Positions 7,261 to 57,189 of a stretch of DNA of 64,000 nucleotides are shown here, in pieces (the stretch's first letter is position 1; the number at the start of each line of letters is the position of its first letter). The DNA is from an uncultured beta proteobacterium (GTDB lineage: Bacteria > Pseudomonadota > Gammaproteobacteria > Burkholderiales > SG8-41). The stretch spans positions 7,034 to 71,033 of the forward strand of contig CAIVHG010000060.1 of NCBI GenBank assembly GCA_903905655.1, written 5' to 3'. A program made the translations under genes and the position numbers. The notes under the pieces are model-generated. The model was not told the DNA's origin and made no database searches. It saw only the letters and a list, made by a program, of their open reading frames with translations.

Positions 7261-8304
7261 ATGCTGATCCTCAACAACGCTGAAGTCACAAAACTGATCG
7301 ACATGCGCGAGTGCATCGCCGCGCTCGAAGACGCTTATCGCGAGCTGGCGCACGGCCGCTCGGTGAGCGCGGTGAACTCGGATGCCATCACTCCGGGATG
7401 CCTGCACGACACCATTTATCAGTTCAAGCTCAACGGCGGCGTGATTCCCAACGTGGGCATCGCGGCGCTGCGGCTCGATTCCGACATTATCAAGCGCGAG
7501 CCGCGCCGCCAGGTGAAGCTGGCGCTCGCGCCGGGCGGACGCTACACCGGGCTCATCATGTTGTTCAGCACCGAGACCAGCGAGCCGCTGGCGATTTTTC
7601 CCGACGGCATCGTGAATCCCATGCGCGTCGCCGCGGCCTCCGCGCTCGGCGCCAAATATCTGGCCCGCCCCGATTCGCACACGGTCGCGCTGATCGGCGC
7701 CGGCTGGCAGGCGCGCTCGCAGGTGATGGCGATCGTGGCGACGCACGAGGTGCGGGTGATCCGCTGCTACAGCCCGACGGCCGAGCGGCGCGACGCCTTC
7801 TGCCGCGAGATGCAGCATTTGACCGGCGTGAAGATGGAATCGTGCGATAGCGCCGAGCGCGCGGTGAGCGGCGCGGACATCGTGCTGTGCGCCACCAACA
7901 CCAACGAAACGTTGTTCTTCGCGCGCTGGCTCAAGCCCGGCATGCACGTCGGCACCATCCGCGGCGCGGAGCTCGAGCCGGCGGCGGTGATGCAGGCCGA
8001 TGTGCTCGCGGTGCACGAGCGCAAGCTGAGCGGCGCTTCCGCGGTTGCCAAGAGCGTGGTGCTCGCCAAGGACCGCATGGCGATCCCCGGAGTCGACATC
8101 GAGCGCCTGCCGACCCTGCCCGAGATCATCGCCGGCATGGTGCCCGGCCGCACCACGCCGCAACAGATCAGCTGCTTTCTCAACCTGCGCGGCATCGGGC
8201 TGCAGTTCGCGGCGGTCGGCGCCGTGATCTACCGCAAGGCACTCGCCAAAGGAATTGGGCGCGAGCTGCCCACCGAATGGTTTACCGAGGACGAGGTGTC
8301 CTGA
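7261..8304 (+). CDS. ornithine cyclodeaminase / mu-crystallin family protein
   Basis: Track ORF 7183..8304. I prefer the ATG at 7261 (MLILNNAEVTKLIDMRECIAALEDAYREL). It has a Rossmann motif (VALIGAGWQARSQV) and the typical CATNT segment. Confidence 0.85.
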   Translation: MLILNNAEVTKLIDMRECIAALEDAYRELAHGRSVSAVNSDAITPGCLHDTIYQFKLNGGVIPNVGIAALRLDSDIIKREPRRQVKLALAPGGRYTGLIMLFSTETSEPLAIFPDGIVNPMRVAAASALGAKYLARPDSHTVALIGAGWQARSQVMAIVATHEVRVIRCYSPTAERRDAFCREMQHLTGVKMESCDSAERAVSGADIVLCATNTNETLFFARWLKPGMHVGTIRGAELEPAAVMQADVLAVHERKLSGASAVAKSVVLAKDRMAIPGVDIERLPTLPEIIAGMVPGRTTPQQISCFLNLRGIGLQFAAVGAVIYRKALAKGIGRELPTEWFTEDEVS

Positions 8305-8333
8305 GGACCGAGCGCGTCGTCAGCTTTGCGCCG

Positions 8334-11300
8334 CTAGCGCGCAATCGATTCCCAGATCTTCTTTAGCCGTTTCACCGACACCGTATACGGTGTCTTGAGT
8401 TCTTGCGCGTAGAGCGACACGCGCAGCTCCTCGATCTGCCAACGAAAGCTCTCCAGCGCCGGCTCGGCAGCACCCGCCTTGCGTAGCTTGTCGCTGCGCT
8501 CCTGATAGAGCTTCCACAGCGCCGCGATATCGGCCGCGTGCTTGGCGTCGCGCGCCGGATTGCCCGGAAATTTGTCGAGCCGCATCGCGAGCGCCTTGAG
8601 ATAGCGCGGCACGTGCTGGAGCTGCTCCCACGGCGTGGCGCTGAAGTAGCCTTTGTAGACCAGATGCTGAAGTTGCGTGCGCAGCTCCGCGACGACGCGG
8701 TTCAGTGCCGGGGCTGCGCTCGTGAGCCGCAGATTCACGCGGTGATGCTCTTCGGCAATCGCAGCGTAGATGCGGCAGGCGGCATCGCGCACCGCCGGCA
8801 GGCGGGTGCGTGCGCGCTGCTTCTGCGCTTCGTATTCTTTTTCATTGCGCGGCAGCTCGTCCTCGCCGATAAAGGCGCGGTCGCAGATCGCGCTCAAGAT
8901 GTCGGCTTTGAGATCCTCGGCGTTCGCGATGCTGCGCAACTGCATGAGCGCCTGCGTCAGGCCCGGCAGGTTTTTGTCGAGCTGCTTCATCTGCTCTTTG
9001 AGCTCGAGGCGCAGCAGCCGGCACACGCCGGCACGCATCGACGCATCCGCGACAGCGCGGGTGTCCAGCAGCCGGATCGCCACGCTGTCGCCTTCGTCCA
9101 CCAGCGCCGGATAACCGGTGAGCTTGCGCCCGCCGCTCTCGAACGCGATCTGCACCGGCAGGTCGCCGCAATCCCATGCCGTGAGTCCGCTGCGCTCGAT
9201 GCCGGGCTCGGCCTTGGCGAAAGTGAGCTGCGCTGCCTGGCCGAGCTGGGCCTTGAGCGCGGCGAGGTCGCGCCCGCCTGCGAGTTCGCGCCCGGCGTCG
9301 TCGATGACGCGGTAGTTCATCCTCAAGTGCAGCGGAATATCCGCATCGTCAAGGATATCGGCGGAGACGATTTCACCAGTGCGCTTCCTCACGTACTGCG
9401 CAAGCGCTTGTGCGAGCGCGATGCCCGACGCGTTGCTGTCCTGCTCCTCGAGAAAGCGCGTCACGTGGTCCTGCAGGGGAAACAGAAGTTTGCGGATCGC
9501 CTTCGGCAGCGCCTTGAAGCAGGCCGCGATCTTTTCGCGGATCATCCCCGGCACCAGCCAGTCGAAGGGCGCGGCAGCAAGCTGGTTCAAGAGCGCGAGC
9601 GGCACGGTCACCGTCACCCCGTCCAGCGCATGGCCTGGCTCGAAACGGTAGCGCAGCTTGAGCGCGACGCCGTCGACCGTGAGGTGGTCCGGGAACTGTG
9701 CTTCGGTGACGCCGGCCGCGCTCTGCAGCATCAGGTATTCGCGGGTCATGAACAGCAGCTTGGGATTCGCGCGCTCCGCGTCCTCGCGCCACTTGTCGAA
9801 GCCGGCGCCGTTGTAGATATCCGGCGGCAGCAGCGCATCGTAGAAACGGAAGATCGTTTCGTCGTCGACCAGCACGTCGCGGCGGCGCGTCTTGTGCTCC
9901 AGGTCCTGCACTTCCTTGACCAGCCGCTGGTTGTGCGCAAAGAACGGGGCGCGCGTCGTGTAGAGCCCCGCGGTCAGCGCCTGGCGGATGAAGATCTCGC
10001 GCGCTTCCGGCGGATTGAGCGGGCCGTAATGCACGCGCCGCTTGGCGACGATGGTGAGTCCGTAAAGCGTGACGCGCTCGAATGCCGTCACCATCGCGCG
10101 CTCCTTCTCCCAATGCGGATCGAAATAGTGGCGGTTGACGAGGTGGCCGGACAGAGCCTCCAGCCATTCGGGCTCGATCTTCGCGACGCAGCGCGCATAG
10201 AGTCGCGTGGTTTCCGTGATCTCGGAGGCCACCACCCACTTGGGCTTCGCTTTCCTGAGCACCGAGCCCGGGAAGATCGCGAATTTGATGCCGCGCGCTC
10301 CCAGGTATTCGTCGCCTTCCTCGGCCTTGGTCCCGATGTTGCCGAGCAGTCCCGCGAGCAGCGCGCGGTGGATCTGCTCGTAAGTGGCCGGCGTCTCGTT
10401 GATATTGAATTTGAGATCGCCGACCAGCGCATGCAGTTGGGTATGGATGTCGCGCCATTCACGGAGGCGCCGGTGCGACAGGAAGCACGCGTGCAGTTCG
10501 TCGATCAGCTTGCGGTTCGATTTCTTGTGCAGCACCGCCTCTGCGAAAAACTCCCACAGCCTGAGGTACGCCATGAAGTCCGAGCGCTCGTCGGCGAAGC
10601 GCTCGTGCGCACGGTCGGCGGCGTCGGCGCGCTCGAAGGGGCGCTCGCGCGGATCCTGCACCGACAGCGCCGAGGCGATGATGAGTATCTCAGAGAGGCA
10701 GTTCTGCTGCTTGGCCGCGAGGATCATGCGCGCCACGCGCGGATCGATCGGAAATTTCGCGAGCTGCCAGCCGATCTCGGTGAGCGCGTTCTGATCGTTG
10801 ACCGCGCCGAGTTCCGCCAGCAGCTGGTAGCCGTCGGCGATCATGCGCGAGCCGGGCGCTTCGAGGAAGGGGAAGCGCTCGACCTCGCCGATCCTGAGCG
10901 ACTTCATGCGCAGGATCACTGCCGCGAGCGAAGTGCGCAGCACCTCCGGGTCGGTGAACTCGGGGCGCGCCGTGTAGTCGTCCTCTGCATAGAGCCGCAC
11001 GCAGATGCCGGCGGCGACGCGCCCGCAGCGACCGGCGCGCTGATTGGCGGAAGCGCGCGAAATCTTCTCTACCCGCAATTGCTCGACCTTGTTGCGGTAA
11101 CTGTAGCGGTTGAGGCGGGCGTAGCCGGTGTCGATCACGTAGCGGATGCCCGGCACCGTGAGCGAAGTCTCCGCGACGTTGGTCGCGAGCACGATTCGGC
11201 GCGCACCGTGCGGCTTGAACACGCGGTCCTGCTCCTCGAACGACAGCCGCGAATAGAGCGGCAGGATCTCCGCGCCCTTGGGATGATGCTTGCGCAGCAG

Positions 11301-50731: not shown

Positions 50732-51871
50732 TCATTTCCAGAGACGCGCCGAGGCGAGCTTCGCCCCTGCGACCAGCGACTGCAGCTTCGCCCACGCGAT
50801 CGTCGGATGCACGCGCGGCCTGGATCTCACGCGGGTGGAAAATCCGCAGTCCGTGCCCGCGATCACGTTCTCTTTGCCGACGATGCCGGCGTAGCGCTCG
50901 ATGCGCTCGGCCACCAGCTCCGGATGCTCGACGAAATTGGTCAGCGTGTCGACGGTGCCGGGGATGATCATCTTGCCGTCCGGCAGCGGATGGTCCCGAA
51001 AAATCTTCCACTCGTGCGCGTGCCGCGGGTTCGCGCCCTCGAAGGAGTAGGCACCCACGTTCGCGCGGTAGACCACGTCGATGATCTCGGCAATCGGCAC
51101 GTCGCGCACGTGCGGCCGCTCGGCATTGCCCCAGCACATGTGCAGGCGCACGCGGTCCGCGGGTATGCCTTCCAGCGCGTGGTTGATGGCAGCGATATGC
51201 TGCTCGACCAGCTTGCGGTAATCGCCGTAGGTCTTGTCGGCAAACTCGTGGCGGCCCCAGCAGATTGCGAGGTCCGGGCTGTCGAGCTGCAGCAGAAAAC
51301 CCGCGGCTACGATCTTGCGGTACTCGTGCTTCATGGCATCGGCCACGGCGAAGATGAACTTTTCTTCGTTGGGGTAGTAATCGTTCGGGAAATTGAAGCA
51401 CACCTGTCCGGGCGACACCGCCGGCATGAACACCCCCACCGGGGAGACGCCCTGCAGCGCAGTTTTGAGCGTAGCGATGTCGCGATCTATGTATGCATCG
51501 CCGCGCCAGGCGACCGGTCCGTTGCATGCAGGGTGGATCTGCGGTTCGCCTTGCGCATAGTACTCGGGGAACATGTCCGCTTCGACCGACGGCGGCTGGG
51601 CGCGCTCGGCGCCGTCGAAGCCGGTGACGCGCTCGGTGATGTACGTCGAAAAGCCGCTCTTGCTCATCTCGCCGTCGCTGATGACGTCGAGGCCGGTGGC
51701 GAGCTGCTGGCGCACGATGCCTGAGACTGCCTCCCGTACTTGCTTGTCGAAGTCGGGGTTGACGGCGAATCTGCGCTGATCGCCGCCTTCGACGTTGTGT
51801 TCAACGATGGCCGCAGGGCGCGGCAGGCTGCCGGTGTGGGTGGTCAGTATACGTTCGGTGCTGTGCTTCAT
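50732..51871 (-). CDS. cobalamin-independent methionine synthase (MetE C-terminal domain)-like family protein
   Basis: 379 aa. ILTTHTGSLPRP and DVISDGEMSK are present. HMCWGN and AGTDCGF provide the Zn-ligand-type His/Cys pattern of Meth_synt_2. Confidence 0.8.
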   Translation of the reverse strand: MKHSTERILTTHTGSLPRPAAIVEHNVEGGDQRRFAVNPDFDKQVREAVSGIVRQQLATGLDVISDGEMSKSGFSTYITERVTGFDGAERAQPPSVEADMFPEYYAQGEPQIHPACNGPVAWRGDAYIDRDIATLKTALQGVSPVGVFMPAVSPGQVCFNFPNDYYPNEEKFIFAVADAMKHEYRKIVAAGFLLQLDSPDLAICWGRHEFADKTYGDYRKLVEQHIAAINHALEGIPADRVRLHMCWGNAERPHVRDVPIAEIIDVVYRANVGAYSFEGANPRHAHEWKIFRDHPLPDGKMIIPGTVDTLTNFVEHPELVAERIERYAGIVGKENVIAGTDCGFSTRVRSRPRVHPTIAWAKLQSLVAGAKLASARLWK

Positions 51872-52107: not shown

Positions 52108-52896
52108 TCACTGTGGTTTGAAGAGTGGAGCGAAGTCCTTATCCATGGTCAACAGGTGGTGGGAAACGACGTTGACTGTGAAATCCATGAGGTCGCCCAA
52201 CGTCGACAGGCCGAGTTGAGCGCTGGCATGGAGGGCGTCTCCTTTGATAAGTATCTCGCTGTGGGCGGCCTTATGCGCCTTGAGGCGTGCATAGTGGTGC
52301 TGTTCGAGGAGCGCCTCTTCGTGGGCGAAGTGCAGCTTGATGTGCACGAGCAGGTCATTGAAAGCGGCGTGGAACGCATCCCGATTTGCTGGCGTCCCAA
52401 AGGATGCGTCCATCACTGCGTTGGCGAGCGCGTAGAGTTCTTTGTGCTCGCCATCGATGACGGCATTTCCGCACTCATTGGGGCTGTCCCAGATGAGATG
52501 CAGATTGTTTTGGTTCGCTTCTATCTCCCATTGGCCGGTGACGCCGCTGGCGCGGTGATCGATGTCAGCTTTGTTGACGAGGTGTTTCAAAGACTGCTCG
52601 GCGCTGGCCTGGTGCAGCGATTCGTCGAAGCGGTGACGGGGATTGAGGCGTCGTTCGACGAACCCAGAGTCGGGTACTGCATTCGCGGCTGGATGAGCGG
52701 CTTGATCGGGGTGCGGGACGATTGGGTCAGTGCTCTTGGGGGCCGTGCTTTGCGCGGGGGTGTCGCTGCCGCGATAGCGGCATCCTACACAGGCGGTGAC
52801 GGTGCGACGCAGTCCCGACCAATGCGTTTTCACCTGTGCCGTGTATTCGGCATAGGTGAGCCGGCAATGGTGACATTCCAGGACCAGCTTTGCCAT
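52108..52896 (-). CDS. fusion protein: N-terminal 4-Cys zinc-ribbon-like segment, linker, and C-terminal hemerythrin-like metal-binding domain
   Basis: The N-terminus has ECHHC...(22 aa)...CVGC. The C-terminus has WDSPNECGNAVIDGEHKELYALANAV...HIKLHFAHEEALLEQHHYARLKAHKAAHSEIL...VVSHHLLTMDKDF, which is the bacteriohemerythrin H/E/D ligand pattern. Confidence 0.7.
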   Translation of the reverse strand: MAKLVLECHHCRLTYAEYTAQVKTHWSGLRRTVTACVGCRYRGSDTPAQSTAPKSTDPIVPHPDQAAHPAANAVPDSGFVERRLNPRHRFDESLHQASAEQSLKHLVNKADIDHRASGVTGQWEIEANQNNLHLIWDSPNECGNAVIDGEHKELYALANAVMDASFGTPANRDAFHAAFNDLLVHIKLHFAHEEALLEQHHYARLKAHKAAHSEILIKGDALHASAQLGLSTLGDLMDFTVNVVSHHLLTMDKDFAPLFKPQ

Positions 52897-53131: not shown

Positions 53132-54340
53132 TTACTTTGGCAACTCGAGCATCACTGCACGCGGCACCAGCGAGTTTTGGCACAGCCTCTGCAGCGATGC
53201 GTCCGTGCTGGCGAGGCAATCCTTATGCAGCGCAAGAAACGCGCGGCCGCCTGCGGTCTCGTGCCAGAACCAGCGCTGGATCCCGCTGGCGTCCGGTGCG
53301 CCGGGGCGCGCTGCGGCCGCTTCGTAGTAATAGGTGCGTATGTCTTCACACATAAGCTTAAGCGTTTCGCCTGCGCTGAGATTGTCGATGCTGTCGACCT
53401 TGTGCTCGCGCAGAAAGCGCGTGATCTGATCTGCGGCTGCGGCGACGGTCAGCTTGCTCAGGCCAACCATGCTGCGGCCGCGGCGCTCGATTGCGCGCTC
53501 GTGCCAGGGCCGCAGCTCTTCGACTTCGCGCACGAACGCAGTGCCAATGTCCTCGTTCTTCGCGGCTGCGAAGCTTGCCGGACAGGCGGCGCCCTGCATA
53601 TCATCCGGCGTCGCCGGCGCATCCTCAGGATAATCTGCAAGCACCGGACCCGACGGTGCATCGAGCAGCTTCAGTGCGGCAAGCAGCACGCGCTCCTGAA
53701 ACGCGGCATCGTTCGGCACGCCGAACGGGCGCCCCAGCATGAACGGTACCCAGAGTGCGCGCGGCGGGTTGATCGCCGCCGTGTGCTCGCGGATTAACGA
53801 TATCTGCGTGGTCGCCACACCGGAGGCCTCGATGTAATGCGCTAGTGCGCCGACGGCGCACGTGCAGTTTGGTCATATCGGGGTCAGCAGCACCGCATCG
53901 ACGTGGTCGCCTTTGAGCAGCGCTGCCATTTCGCGCGCCTTCGCCTCGAGCTGGCGGATCTGCGTTGCGCCCATGAACGAATAGTGCAGGTCAGCCACCG
54001 ATCCGATGACTTTGCGCTGCGCTAGCTCGTTAAGGCGGTCGATCGGAAACGCGACGTTGTAATCTTCCTGAAATCCGGTGCGGTCAAAATTGACCGATTG
54101 GTGGCTCATCACGAGCTCTGAGGCCTTGGTGTCGCCCGGAATAATCCGATAGTCAGTGGCGCTGGGGCCGAACGGGCGATCGGTCTTTCGGTGCACGCCG
54201 GCGGTGGTGACGATCGCGACGCGGCATTGCGCAAGCGGCGGCGGCTGGACCCATGGCCGGCCGTCGAAGCCGCCGAGCTCCTTTATCTTATCGAGCTTGT
54301 TCTTGCGGTCCCACTCCGGCAAATCAGCCAATCGAACCAT
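53132..54340 (-). CDS. GrdB/PrdB-family (glycine/sarcosine/betaine/D-proline reductase selenoprotein B-like) protein with an in-frame TGA read as selenocysteine (402 aa, U at codon 156)
   Basis: Track ORFs 53873..54340 and 53132..53818 are in the same frame, and the only stop between them is the TGA at 53873..53875. The continuous translation is ...KGDHVDAVLLTPI-U-PNCTCAVGALAHYIEASGVATTQISLIREHTAAINPPRALWVPFMLGRPFGVPND... The N-terminal part (RVAIVTTAGVH...DYRIIPGD...LVMSHQSVNFDRTGFQEDYNVAFPIDRL) matches my recollection of the GRDB family. A SECIS-like hairpin follows the TGA. Confidence 0.7.
53845..53861 (-). promoter_or_regulatory. candidate bacterial SECIS stem-loop
   Basis: The mRNA reads UGA-CCAAACUGCAC(11 nt)-GUGCGCC-GUC-GGCGCAC. 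This is a perfect 7-bp stem (17 nt in total) with G-U in the apical loop, starting exactly 11 nt after the UGA. That is comparable to the minimal E. coli fdhF SECIS geometry. Confidence 0.5.
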
Positions 54341-54388
54341 TTTCGATCGTCCTTATTATCTTGTACTGCTGATGGGTAAACAGCGCTC

Positions 54389-55255
54389 TCAGCGGATCTC
54401 GCGATGCACGAACTCGATGATCTTTTCGATCGCCGCCTTGGCCTGGGGTGAGTCCGGATGTAGGGGGATGAAAGTCTGGCCCATGCCCTCGAACCAGTGC
54501 AGCTCCACAAGGCCGCCGGCCTTGCGATAGGCTTCGACGAAGCGTTCGAGATGGGGGCGCGGATGCGCGCTGTCGTTGGTTCCCTGTAGGTAGAGTACCG
54601 GCGGCATCTGCACGGATTCGCCGCGTTCGAGCGCGCGCGTGGGATTGCCCTCGGCCATCGCCGCTTCGTCACCCCAATAGCTGATGTGGTCCGGTCCTAC
54701 CGATTCGAAAAGCCTTGAATTTCCCTCCGCCTTGAGCTTTTGCGCATGTTGATAGCGGCCCAGCGGATCGATCACCGGCCAGCACAGCACTGCGCAGCGC
54801 ACCGTGGCATCGACCGCTGCGGGTTCGGGTAATGCGATGGCTGCGTAGCGCGGATCGGCGGGGCGCATCGCGGCCAGCATGGCCTGGTGGCCGCCGCTCG
54901 AAAATCCGATGATGCCGACCAGGTCGGGGCGGCTGTTGAACTTTGCCGCATTTGCCTTGAACCAGCGGATCGCGTAATTGATATCGACGAGGGAAGCGGG
55001 ATATCCCGCATCGGGCGGCATGCGGAAATCGGGCGATACGACCACCACGCCGCTTTTTGCCAGCGGCACCTCGGTGTGTGTATTGGCGGTGCGGTCCTTC
55101 CTGCACCAGGCGCCGCCATGCAAGGCGATCATCAGAGGGTAAGGACCGTCGCCGCGCGGCCTGGATACGCGCGCGAGCAGGGGCTTGCCGCCATGGCGCA
55201 GGAATTCCACGTCGGAGACTTCGATTTCGTGGTTCGACAAGCTGGAACTCGTCAT
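54389..55255 (-). CDS. alpha/beta hydrolase fold-3 (HSL-type carboxylesterase/lipase) protein
   Basis: Track ORF 54389..55438. I prefer the ATG at 55255, preceded by GAGGAG. It has the HGGAW oxyanion motif and the GFSSGG nucleophile elbow. Its stop lies 48 nt upstream of the GrdB-like start on the same strand. Confidence 0.8.
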   Translation of the reverse strand: MTSSSLSNHEIEVSDVEFLRHGGKPLLARVSRPRGDGPYPLMIALHGGAWCRKDRTANTHTEVPLAKSGVVVVSPDFRMPPDAGYPASLVDINYAIRWFKANAAKFNSRPDLVGIIGFSSGGHQAMLAAMRPADPRYAAIALPEPAAVDATVRCAVLCWPVIDPLGRYQHAQKLKAEGNSRLFESVGPDHISYWGDEAAMAEGNPTRALERGESVQMPPVLYLQGTNDSAHPRPHLERFVEAYRKAGGLVELHWFEGMGQTFIPLHPDSPQAKAAIEKIIEFVHREIR

Positions 55256-55500: not shown

Positions 55501-57189
55501 ATGCAATTGAGGTTTCGGTTCTTCCTGCTGATGACGGCGCTATTTGTCGGCTTCGTGCTGATCGTCTGGTTTTTTTCCCTGCGCTGGCAGAATGAAATCA
55601 ACTATACCTGGGGGCAGCAGTTCGCCCAGCGCCAGGTCGCCTTCGACAAGTACCGCACCCTCTCGCCATTGATCCGCGAAATCGGGCTTGCCAAACAGAT
55701 GGCGGCCGACCCGGACATCGTGGCGATGGCCTCGCATGAGGACGACCCGGCGGCGAAGGCGCGCGGCATCGCGGCCATGGAAAACTACCGCTTCAATTTT
55801 CGCGACCACACTTATTTTTCGGCGATGGCACGGTCCGGAAATTACTATTTCAACGACGCGAGCAACCAATATCAGGGCCGGCAACTGCGCTACGTCCTGT
55901 CCGAGAACAACTCGAACGACAAGTGGTTCTATGCCACAATCAAAAGCGGCAAGCTCGCCCAGATCAATGTCGATCCCGACGTGCACCTGGGCGTGACCAA
56001 GGTCTGGATCAACGTGCTCATCAAAAGCGGCGACCAGACTTTAGGGGTAATCGGCACCGGCATCGATCTCACGAGCTTTTTGAAGGAGACGGTCAGCTTT
56101 CAGCAGTCGGGGGTGCACAACCTGTTCGTCGACGAGAGCAGGGCGATTCAGCTCAACAATAACCCGGACCTCATCGACTACATGAGCATCGGCAAGGACG
56201 TGAGCCAGCGCATCAAGGTCGATCGGCTGTTCACGAGCGCCTCCGATGTCGAAAATCTCAGGGTCGCGATGGAGGAGCTGGAGCGCAATCCCGACCAAAG
56301 CCGCACGCTGTGGGTGGACTATGCGGGAAGGAAGGAACTGCTGGGCGTGGCATACCTGCCCGAAATCGGCTGGTTCGACCTTACTCTGATGGATGCGCAC
56401 GGCCTGATTCCGATCCAGGAGGCATGGAGGATACCCGCATTGTTTGTCGCCGCGCTGCTGATCGCTTTGCTGAGCATGGGCTATGCGTTGAGCCGCTGGG
56501 TGATCAGGCCGATCGCTGCATTGCAGAACGCCACCGAAAGGATGCAGCGCGGCGAATTCGACGTCGAGCATCCGGTCCAGGGGACGGGCGAGATCGAGCG
56601 CCTGTCGTGGTCCTTCGCGCAGATGGCGAAATACGTGGGCGATACGAATCGCGAACTGGAAAACAAGGTGCGCGAACGCACCGATGAACTGAATCGCATG
56701 GCGGAGACGGACCTGCTGACCGGACTGCTCAACCGGCGCGGCATGACGGACCGGTTGGAGAAGGAGATCGCACGCCAGGTGCGTCAGGACGGAATGCTCG
56801 GCCTGCTGATGCTCGACCTCGACCGCTTCAAATCGATCAACGACAGCTACGGGCATGCGGCCGGCGACGCGGCGCTGCGCGAGGCGGCGGCAGTTATCCA
56901 GTCGTTAAAACGCGAATACGACCACGCGGCCCGTTGGGGAGGCGAGGAGTTCCTGATACTGCTGCCGGTATGCGACAAGACCAATCTGCTCACGGTCGCG
57001 GAGCGCATCCGTGACGCCATCAGGAACCTGAATATCCGTGCGGCGGGGCAATCGTTTTCGCTCACCGTCAGCATCGGCGCCTATCATGCCGCCACCCCGC
57101 AACCACTGGAAACGCTGCTGCAGAAGGTCGACCAGGCGCTGTATGCCGCCAAGGGCGAGGAGCGGGACTGCGTGCGGCTTTTCTCATAG
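55501..57189 (+). CDS. membrane-bound diguanylate cyclase (periplasmic sensor domain, HAMP, GGDEF)
   Basis: It has two TM segments flanking a ~280-aa periplasmic domain, a HAMP domain (RWVIRPIAALQNATERMQRGEF), the GGEEF active site, and an RxxD I-site (REYD) 5 residues upstream. Confidence 0.9.
   Translation: MQLRFRFFLLMTALFVGFVLIVWFFSLRWQNEINYTWGQQFAQRQVAFDKYRTLSPLIREIGLAKQMAADPDIVAMASHEDDPAAKARGIAAMENYRFNFRDHTYFSAMARSGNYYFNDASNQYQGRQLRYVLSENNSNDKWFYATIKSGKLAQINVDPDVHLGVTKVWINVLIKSGDQTLGVIGTGIDLTSFLKETVSFQQSGVHNLFVDESRAIQLNNNPDLIDYMSIGKDVSQRIKVDRLFTSASDVENLRVAMEELERNPDQSRTLWVDYAGRKELLGVAYLPEIGWFDLTLMDAHGLIPIQEAWRIPALFVAALLIALLSMGYALSRWVIRPIAALQNATERMQRGEFDVEHPVQGTGEIERLSWSFAQMAKYVGDTNRELENKVRERTDELNRMAETDLLTGLLNRRGMTDRLEKEIARQVRQDGMLGLLMLDLDRFKSINDSYGHAAGDAALREAAAVIQSLKREYDHAARWGGEEFLILLPVCDKTNLLTVAERIRDAIRNLNIRAAGQSFSLTVSIGAYHAATPQPLETLLQKVDQALYAAKGEERDCVRLFS

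Follow-up and report, generated by a model that had tools for sequence, protein, structure and literature searches.

The reverse strand of a 64,000-nucleotide (nt) stretch of contig CAIVHG010000060.1 from an uncultured Burkholderiales bacterium (the whole stretch is called the window here) carries a PrdB/GrdB-like selenoprotein gene at positions 53132 to 54340, assigned by its translation, Pfam GRDB, and NCBIfam PrdB. It has 402 codons and a stop, and the single frame running from 54340 to 53132 is interrupted solely by a TGA at codon 156 (53873 to 53875); read as selenocysteine (Sec), this gives P-I-U-P-N-C-T-C, in which comparative alignment places a U-P-N-C redox motif. Upstream on the same strand is an esterase gene (54389 to 55255) whose product is an HSL-like alpha/beta hydrolase (Abhydrolase_3/BD-FAE by Pfam) with HGGAW and GFSSGG motifs. 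The 48 nt that separate the stop codon of the esterase gene from the ATG of the selenoprotein gene (54341 to 54388) include an AAGGA Shine-Dalgarno sequence. The initial annotation had reported these motifs and this spacing correctly, and had read the pairing as pointing to reductive chemistry, possibly on an ester-derived substrate.

Comparison with homologs indicates that the gene codes for a genuine selenoprotein of a large orphan family, related to PrdB and GrdB yet outside both. We regard it as quite probable that this family assignment holds, that the esterase is incidental, and that the protein is likely a stand-alone selenol/thiol reductase.

Selenocysteine recoding and family membership

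Homologs were collected by scanning one genome per species, giving 80 loci with relatives of 44 to 79% identity, all in metagenome-assembled genomes (MAGs) of Burkholderiales and of alpha-, gamma-, and deltaproteobacterial types. TGA occupies the Sec column in 79 of the 80 species loci as well as in the window; one member has CGN and one is broken. Cysteine stands at this column (PVCPNCT) in full-length database homologs, and Sec and Cys forms thus both exist, as the initial annotation had asked. The lone member with CGN (Arg; PVRPNCT) is L071:802-2010, possibly because TGA mutated to CGA or because of an error in sequencing.

A selenocysteine insertion sequence (SECIS) hairpin, GUGCGCC-GUC-GGCGCAC, lies at 53845 to 53861 on the reverse strand, its stem beginning 11 nt past the UGA, and was recognized by folding together with covariation. 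Across 74 distinct sequences, 88.8% of the cells in the helix are paired, and the second pair (22-36) is CG in 47, UA in 17, GC in 3, and AU in 2. The covariation score of the helix was matched by no shuffle out of 500, and pairing falls to 29 to 59% when the partner is slid by one to three columns. The apical loop starts with G28 and U29, which are invariant or nearly so, and the element thus has the marks of a bacterial SECIS: a stem-loop close after the UGA, an apical G(U), and compensatory changes. Folding of the single sequence is not significant alone (z = -0.9), and the hairpin is therefore settled by comparative analysis only; an Rfam scan of the window at gathering thresholds returned no SECIS and no other RNA family.

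The stretch is present in lake-water metagenomes of several studies, and contigs covering the TGA from three of these (X1, X2, and X6) have no differing base at that codon. We also note that Logan contigs from several lake metagenomes start or end within 53844 to 53881, where summed depth spikes; we take this to mean that several co-occurring strains or species share a near-identical SECIS region. Within the window, a plausible in-frame TGA is present in this gene alone. The neighbors of the selenoprotein gene and 28 of the larger remaining open reading frames (ORFs) were compared with Pfam, and TctC receptors were identified by BLAST; no Sel family (SelA, SelB, or SelD) was found in these scanned genes, and no tRNA in the window. 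Since TGA is kept at all but one of the sampled loci, covariation supports the hairpin, and some homologs have Cys, the comparative evidence indicates that UGA recoding is aided by a conserved, covarying SECIS hairpin and that the selenoprotein is real. The initial description of a GrdB-like selenoprotein is thus upheld by the in-frame TGA at codon 156, by the SECIS covariation, and by the Pfam match given below.

Membership in the superfamily follows from the match of residues 36 to 153 to Pfam GRDB (PF07355), at 39 bits against a gathering threshold of 22. The best NCBIfam match is to PrdB (TIGR04483), with residues 35 to 226 aligning to positions 26 to 218 of the 238 in the model, but its 108.1 bits fall below the equivalog cut-off of 300. 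U156-P-N-C159 lies within this match and is a UxxC at the conserved PrdB position. Scores against the GrdB models TIGR01917 and TIGR01918 are 37.8 bits (cut-off, 602) and 46 bits (cut-off, 65.45), and neither is passed; the GrdB, GrdF, and GrdH models align by their C-terminal half only, at about positions 221 to 399 of ~431, and below their cut-offs.

The protein is laid out as a Rossmann-like alpha/beta domain (residues 36 to 236), a flexible loop with an invariant Cys253 (residues 247 to 254), and an all-helical C-terminal domain (residues 256 to 402), and at 402 residues it departs from the single-domain PrdB of ~240 residues. The 147-residue helical domain is conserved through the family, and both halves of the protein are conserved over their full length, at about 79 to 80% identity to the sister sequence L001. 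No consistent Pfam family matches these C-terminal residues in the 42 members compared; a DUF2164 match was weak, occurred in one of the 42, and was dismissed. Gene callers split the locus into products of 155 and 228 amino acids (aa). A profile search of 1.84 billion representatives returned 4,117 matches at E<=1e-3, mostly post-Sec fragments of ~245 residues, and this dominance of fragments implies that the gene is commonly split by callers.

The family is almost certainly, to judge from its sequence features, the one that two selenoproteome surveys listed under PrdB. Zhang, Fomenko and Gladyshev (2005) ranked "Proline reductase (PrdB)", a UxxC family, third in abundance among the selenoprotein families of the Sargasso Sea, with 42 Sec forms and 1 Cys form (PMC1088965), and Zhang and Gladyshev (2008) reported 235 Sec and 110 Cys members of pfam07355, also with UxxC, in the Global Ocean Sampling (GOS) survey (PMC2398784). 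The correspondence covers pfam07355, the UxxC motif, the predominance of Sec over Cys forms, and the aerobic surface waters, and is a match of family features rather than of survey sequences. The surveys named the family for proline reductase, and gene context, the additional C-terminal domain, and the lack of PrdA are not described there; the window copy is of a freshwater Burkholderiales type. Later reviews retain the PrdB label (PMC9312934, PMC13188914), and a full-text search of the literature yielded no work on the function of the orphan family. An uncharacterized reductive role other than Stickland metabolism, as initially proposed, stays the most reasonable reading, but the accompanying suggestion of a novel context does not stand, the family having been catalogued in 2005 and 2008 (PMC1088965, PMC2398784). 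The orphan family is thus already catalogued but uncharacterized, and the context in the window is ordinary for it.

Differences from the characterized relatives are consistent. With D-proline reductase PrdB (TIGR04483; Clostridium sticklandii/Clostridioides difficile type) the window protein shares the alpha/beta core and a Sec residue in UxxC, but it is ~165 residues longer, has a novel helical domain, and belongs to aerobic hosts, and no prdA, prdC, prdD, prdE, or prdF was found in the scanned window genes or among the recurrent or nearest neighbors of the 80 loci. With selenoprotein B (GrdB/GrdF/GrdH) it shares the Pfam GRDB match and aligns to the Sec-bearing C-terminal half, but it is without the GrdB N-terminal half, has UxxCxC in place of the UxxCxxC given for GrdB (PMC13188914), and has no grdA, grdE, grdC, or grdD found nearby.

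Neighbors of the selenoprotein gene

ORFs within 7 kb of the gene were clustered over the 80 loci, and the most widespread neighbor family occurs at no more than 15 of them. The nearest upstream genes fall into 58 Pfam families and the nearest downstream genes into 53 (about 70 loci on each side). No Grd/Prd or alpha/beta hydrolase family is in the top 25 of the upstream or downstream lists, and no Grd/Prd component is among the identified recurrent neighbor clusters. A non-canonical context is therefore the rule for this family, and its neighbors change by clade.

The window and L001 fall inside a well-supported Burkholderiales clade of 23 members in a maximum-likelihood tree. In eight loci of this clade an AhpD-like/CMD selenoprotein gene (C-H-Y-U) with an in-frame TGA lies 29 to 40 nt upstream, forming a two-selenoprotein pair (L002:9358-9969, L003:9358-9969, L008:2915-3526, L009:9369-9968, L010:9347-9952, L011:9358-9969, and L043:6234-6842 and 8092-8673), and L006 has a Cys form (C-R-Y-C) in this position. 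These pairs usually have TetR and radical-SAM/DUF3641 (ArsS-like) genes near them. AhpD-like (COG2128/CMD) CxxU selenoproteins are likewise abundant in aerobic waters; they have another fold, form a separate family, and have no homolog in the window, but their linkage to the PrdB-like gene in the Burkholderiales clade hints at a thiol/selenol redox pathway common to both. Close relatives of the window also have thioredoxin, AhpC, rhodanese, CMD, and GFA genes nearby.

Other clades have different partners. A co-oriented TauD/TfdA-family dioxygenase gene (~328 aa) comes immediately after the family gene in 15 loci from a clade of marine alphaproteobacterial and Delta/Myxococcota types (L028, L039-L041, L049, L050, L060, L064, L065, L067, L072-L075, and L078), and several of these loci also have extra TauD paralogs and hydantoinase A/B genes. 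Tandem PrdB-like copies ~30 nt apart are found in nine alphaproteobacterial loci (L020, L021, L022, L032, L042, L047, L052, L054, and L062), with TGA in both copies in eight of the nine and one degraded copy in L062; where identified, the flanking genes are murJ and trpS. The CMD, TauD, radical-SAM, TetR, hydantoinase, and GATase neighbors of other clades have no homolog in the window. The family as a whole is spread over MAGs of beta-, alpha-, gamma-, and deltaproteobacterial types from oxic waters and soils, and nearly always in its Sec form.

The esterase had been described as the sole co-oriented neighbor in the window, but two further genes are on the same strand downstream. The nearer, 235 nt away at 52108 to 52896, codes for a Zn-ribbon-like protein with a Pfam hemerythrin domain and an N-terminal CHHC...CVGC segment, and the farther (50732 to 51871) for a MetE-like protein (Meth_synt_2 by Pfam) that is probably unrelated. 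Divergent from the esterase gene is a HAMP-GGDEF diguanylate cyclase gene (55501 to 57189, forward strand; Pfam), which marks the unit boundary, and the same HAMP-GGDEF/esterase arrangement is present in the near-identical contig L087. As partners of the family, the MetE-like gene was rejected, with homologs near only 4 of the 80 loci and judged close to chance, as were GGDEF and, at the level of the family, hemerythrin, both absent from all 80.

We consider it very improbable that the hemerythrin protein is an O2- or iron-sensing or protecting partner of the selenoprotein within the window lineage. Its gene is co-oriented and downstream in contigs 99% identical to the window. L083, at 89% identity, retains it as well, with 93% identity over the first 56 residues of the protein, despite a different gene upstream of the selenoprotein; its adjacency to the selenoprotein gene is therefore older than that of the esterase. 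However, it is missing from the 72 to 79% identical relatives as well as from the 80 loci, the 235-nt gap suggests a promoter of its own, and synteny among close relatives is expected by descent alone.

A two-step pathway, in which the hydrolase would cleave an ester and the selenoprotein would reduce the acid or alcohol set free, is very unlikely. In its favor, the two genes are co-oriented and 48 nt apart with no terminator-like site between them, and they stay adjacent in contigs of 99% identity and in one of ~94% nucleotide identity. A tblastn search with the esterase over 10 kb on each side of the 80 loci, however, gave a single match, 5 kb from the family gene, which refutes the pathway at the family level; the pairing is conserved only in relatives of at least ~94% nucleotide identity, and the initial proposal of an ester-derived substrate falls with it. 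In L083 a gene for a YfhO-like membrane protein, 519 nt upstream, takes the place of the esterase, and the nucleotide alignment with the window loses homology exactly at the selenoprotein ATG, with synteny ending at the spacer. Relatives of 72 to 79% identity have GFA, TctC receptor, or M24 peptidase genes upstream in place of the esterase, and in three of these (72 to 74%) the GFA gene is divergent and 76 nt away. In the MAG that contains L001, a sister of the window, an esterase ortholog (67% identity) is on a separate contig from the selenoprotein gene, flanked by a TctC receptor gene and by SGL and MmgE/PrpD genes, and the esterase family, with more than 6,500 proteins, extends far beyond the reach of the pairing.

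Because the esterase is missing at homologous loci, homology with L083 stops at the ATG, and the sister genes are unlinked, the adjacency is best read from these alignments as a recent rearrangement ending at the ATG, and the esterase as a lineage-specific chance neighbor that carries no information about the substrate. The GFA gene (PF04828, glutathione-dependent formaldehyde-activating enzyme-like) is found in divergent orientation in sister lineages of the window (L084:3992-4402 and L085:3993-4403); L001:3252-3467 is a GFA remnant, and the gene has been lost from the window. The esterase itself may belong to a subfamily with a non-canonical catalytic triad. Its HGGAW and GFSSG fit the HGG oxyanion motif and the GxSxG nucleophile elbow of HSL-type (family IV) esterases. 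The position where the catalytic His of the HSL-type "HGF" motif would be expected, Q260 in the window protein, is Glu or Gln in 12 homologs of 65 to 71% identity. Among the homologs compared, H123, H190, and H231 do not vary and H253 hardly does.

The protein could alternatively be a true PrdB or GrdB that acts in trans with Prd or Grd subunits coded elsewhere in the genome, in a cryptic Stickland-type metabolism; this is highly improbable. The top NCBIfam match is indeed PrdB, and within this genome the Grd/Prd search covered the window only. But the scores are far under the equivalog cut-offs, and a 402-residue protein with an additional domain contrasts with a 238-position PrdB model. Canonical grd and prd genes are operon-linked, and the linkage expected of PrdB (prdA and other prd genes) or of GrdB (grdA, grdE, grdC, and grdD) was found neither in the window nor among the recurrent or nearest neighbors of the 80 loci; in agreement with the initial annotation, no GRDA, Gly_reductase, or other Grd/Prd component is among the scanned genes of the 64-kb window. 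The hosts are also from oxic lakes and oceans, and at some loci the partner of the gene is a TauD-family enzyme, which depends on O2.

The other contents of the window point the same way as had been claimed at the outset. Fourteen TctC/Bug receptors, a Mo-hydroxylase large subunit, and the hemerythrin protein are coded there, together with PPK2, MmgE/PrpD, an HrpA-type helicase, aconitase, a sulfatase, a lactonase, and pirin, and the host is consistent with an aerobic-type heterotroph of lake-water Burkholderiales. A promoter and terminator scan gave no more sites than shuffled sequence, and no terminator-like site in the 48-nt spacer.

Finally, that the TGA is a real stop, arising by pseudogenization or assembly error and separating two unrelated short ORFs, would fit the split calls of 155 and 228 aa, the weak single-sequence fold, and the lack of an Rfam match, but it is essentially refuted, and we give it next to no probability, by the TGA column in 79 of 80 species, Cys in full-length homologs, covariation in the hairpin, conservation of the halves as one protein with one confident model, and base calls that agree across independent metagenomes.

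Predicted structure and proposed reaction

An AlphaFold2 model built from a 50-sequence alignment has a predicted local distance difference test (pLDDT) score of 91.3 and a predicted template modeling (pTM) score of 0.88. Sec156 is placed between a strand (residues 149 to 153) and a helix (residues 157 to 172), which matches the strand-CxxC-helix arrangement known from thiol oxidoreductases. R65, D86, R87, D101, R102, H119, D145, U156, P157, C159, T160, R194, and C253 are invariant in the 50 sequences. The loop at residues 247 to 254 (53576 to 53599) is the sole disordered segment of the model, with pLDDT below 50, and contains the Cys253 codon (53579 to 53581); in this model the invariant Cys253 is a candidate for a mobile cysteine with a resolving or electron-relay role. 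A sequence-profile search of PDB gave no matches and hence no solved relative. Foldseek likewise returned no PDB structure at E<=1e-3 for the full model or for the C-terminal domain by itself (pLDDT 94.4), whose best E value was 1.5.

The most likely role, judged from these conserved features, would be that of a stand-alone selenol/thiol reductase. We propose a two-electron reaction in which the Sec156 selenolate would be the nucleophile that attacks the substrate, and Cys159 would resolve the intermediate by forming a selenenylsulfide with Sec156. Electrons would be returned through Cys253 or an external dithiol, for which thioredoxin and the AhpD-like protein are candidates. R65, D86, R87, D101, R102, H119, and R194 of the Rossmann-like domain may bind a small, probably anionic substrate, and homology to PrdB and GrdB leaves room for reductive cleavage of a C-heteroatom bond beside a carboxylate. 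Thiol/selenol redox chemistry is favored because AhpD-like, thioredoxin-type, and GFA neighbors recur.

Several considerations weigh against the stand-alone reductase and its incidental neighbor. The roles suggested for Cys159 and Cys253 draw on conservation and a predicted model, and the proposed function likewise derives from sequence and predicted structure for every member of the family. To our knowledge, the only characterized homologs, PrdB and GrdB, need a pyruvoyl subunit, and stand-alone activity is thus something that we infer. The negative results for Sel, Grd, and Prd span the window, and a distant prdA, grdE, or selA/B/C/D may lie elsewhere. In addition, since the 48-nt spacer is without a terminator-like site, the esterase and selenoprotein genes may be co-transcribed in the window species.

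A more far-reaching version of the stand-alone reductase is possible, although we hold it to be rather doubtful. The protein would be a self-contained, pyruvoyl-independent selenoenzyme in which the C-terminal domain replaces PrdA/GrdE, with an AhpD-like CxxU protein as relay in some lineages, and it would reduce a small environmental compound. Candidate substrates would be organo-sulfur, -selenium, or -arsenic compounds, or an amine-type osmolyte product. If true, this would be a reaction class undescribed for relatives of GrdB and PrdB.

Implications for the family

As regards the window, these findings chiefly clarify matters: the gene belongs to a known orphan family and sits in a context that is usual for it. 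Recognizing the esterase as a chance neighbor keeps a false lead out of the annotation, and the AhpD-like selenoprotein and TauD-family partners of other clades are better starting points for assays. The Sargasso Sea and GOS surveys place the family among the most abundant selenoproteins of oxic surface waters; its gene is routinely split by callers, and the label "proline reductase" is wrong for it. The protein has a domain without a structural neighbor in the PDB searched, and its most likely role is that of a stand-alone selenol/thiol reductase.

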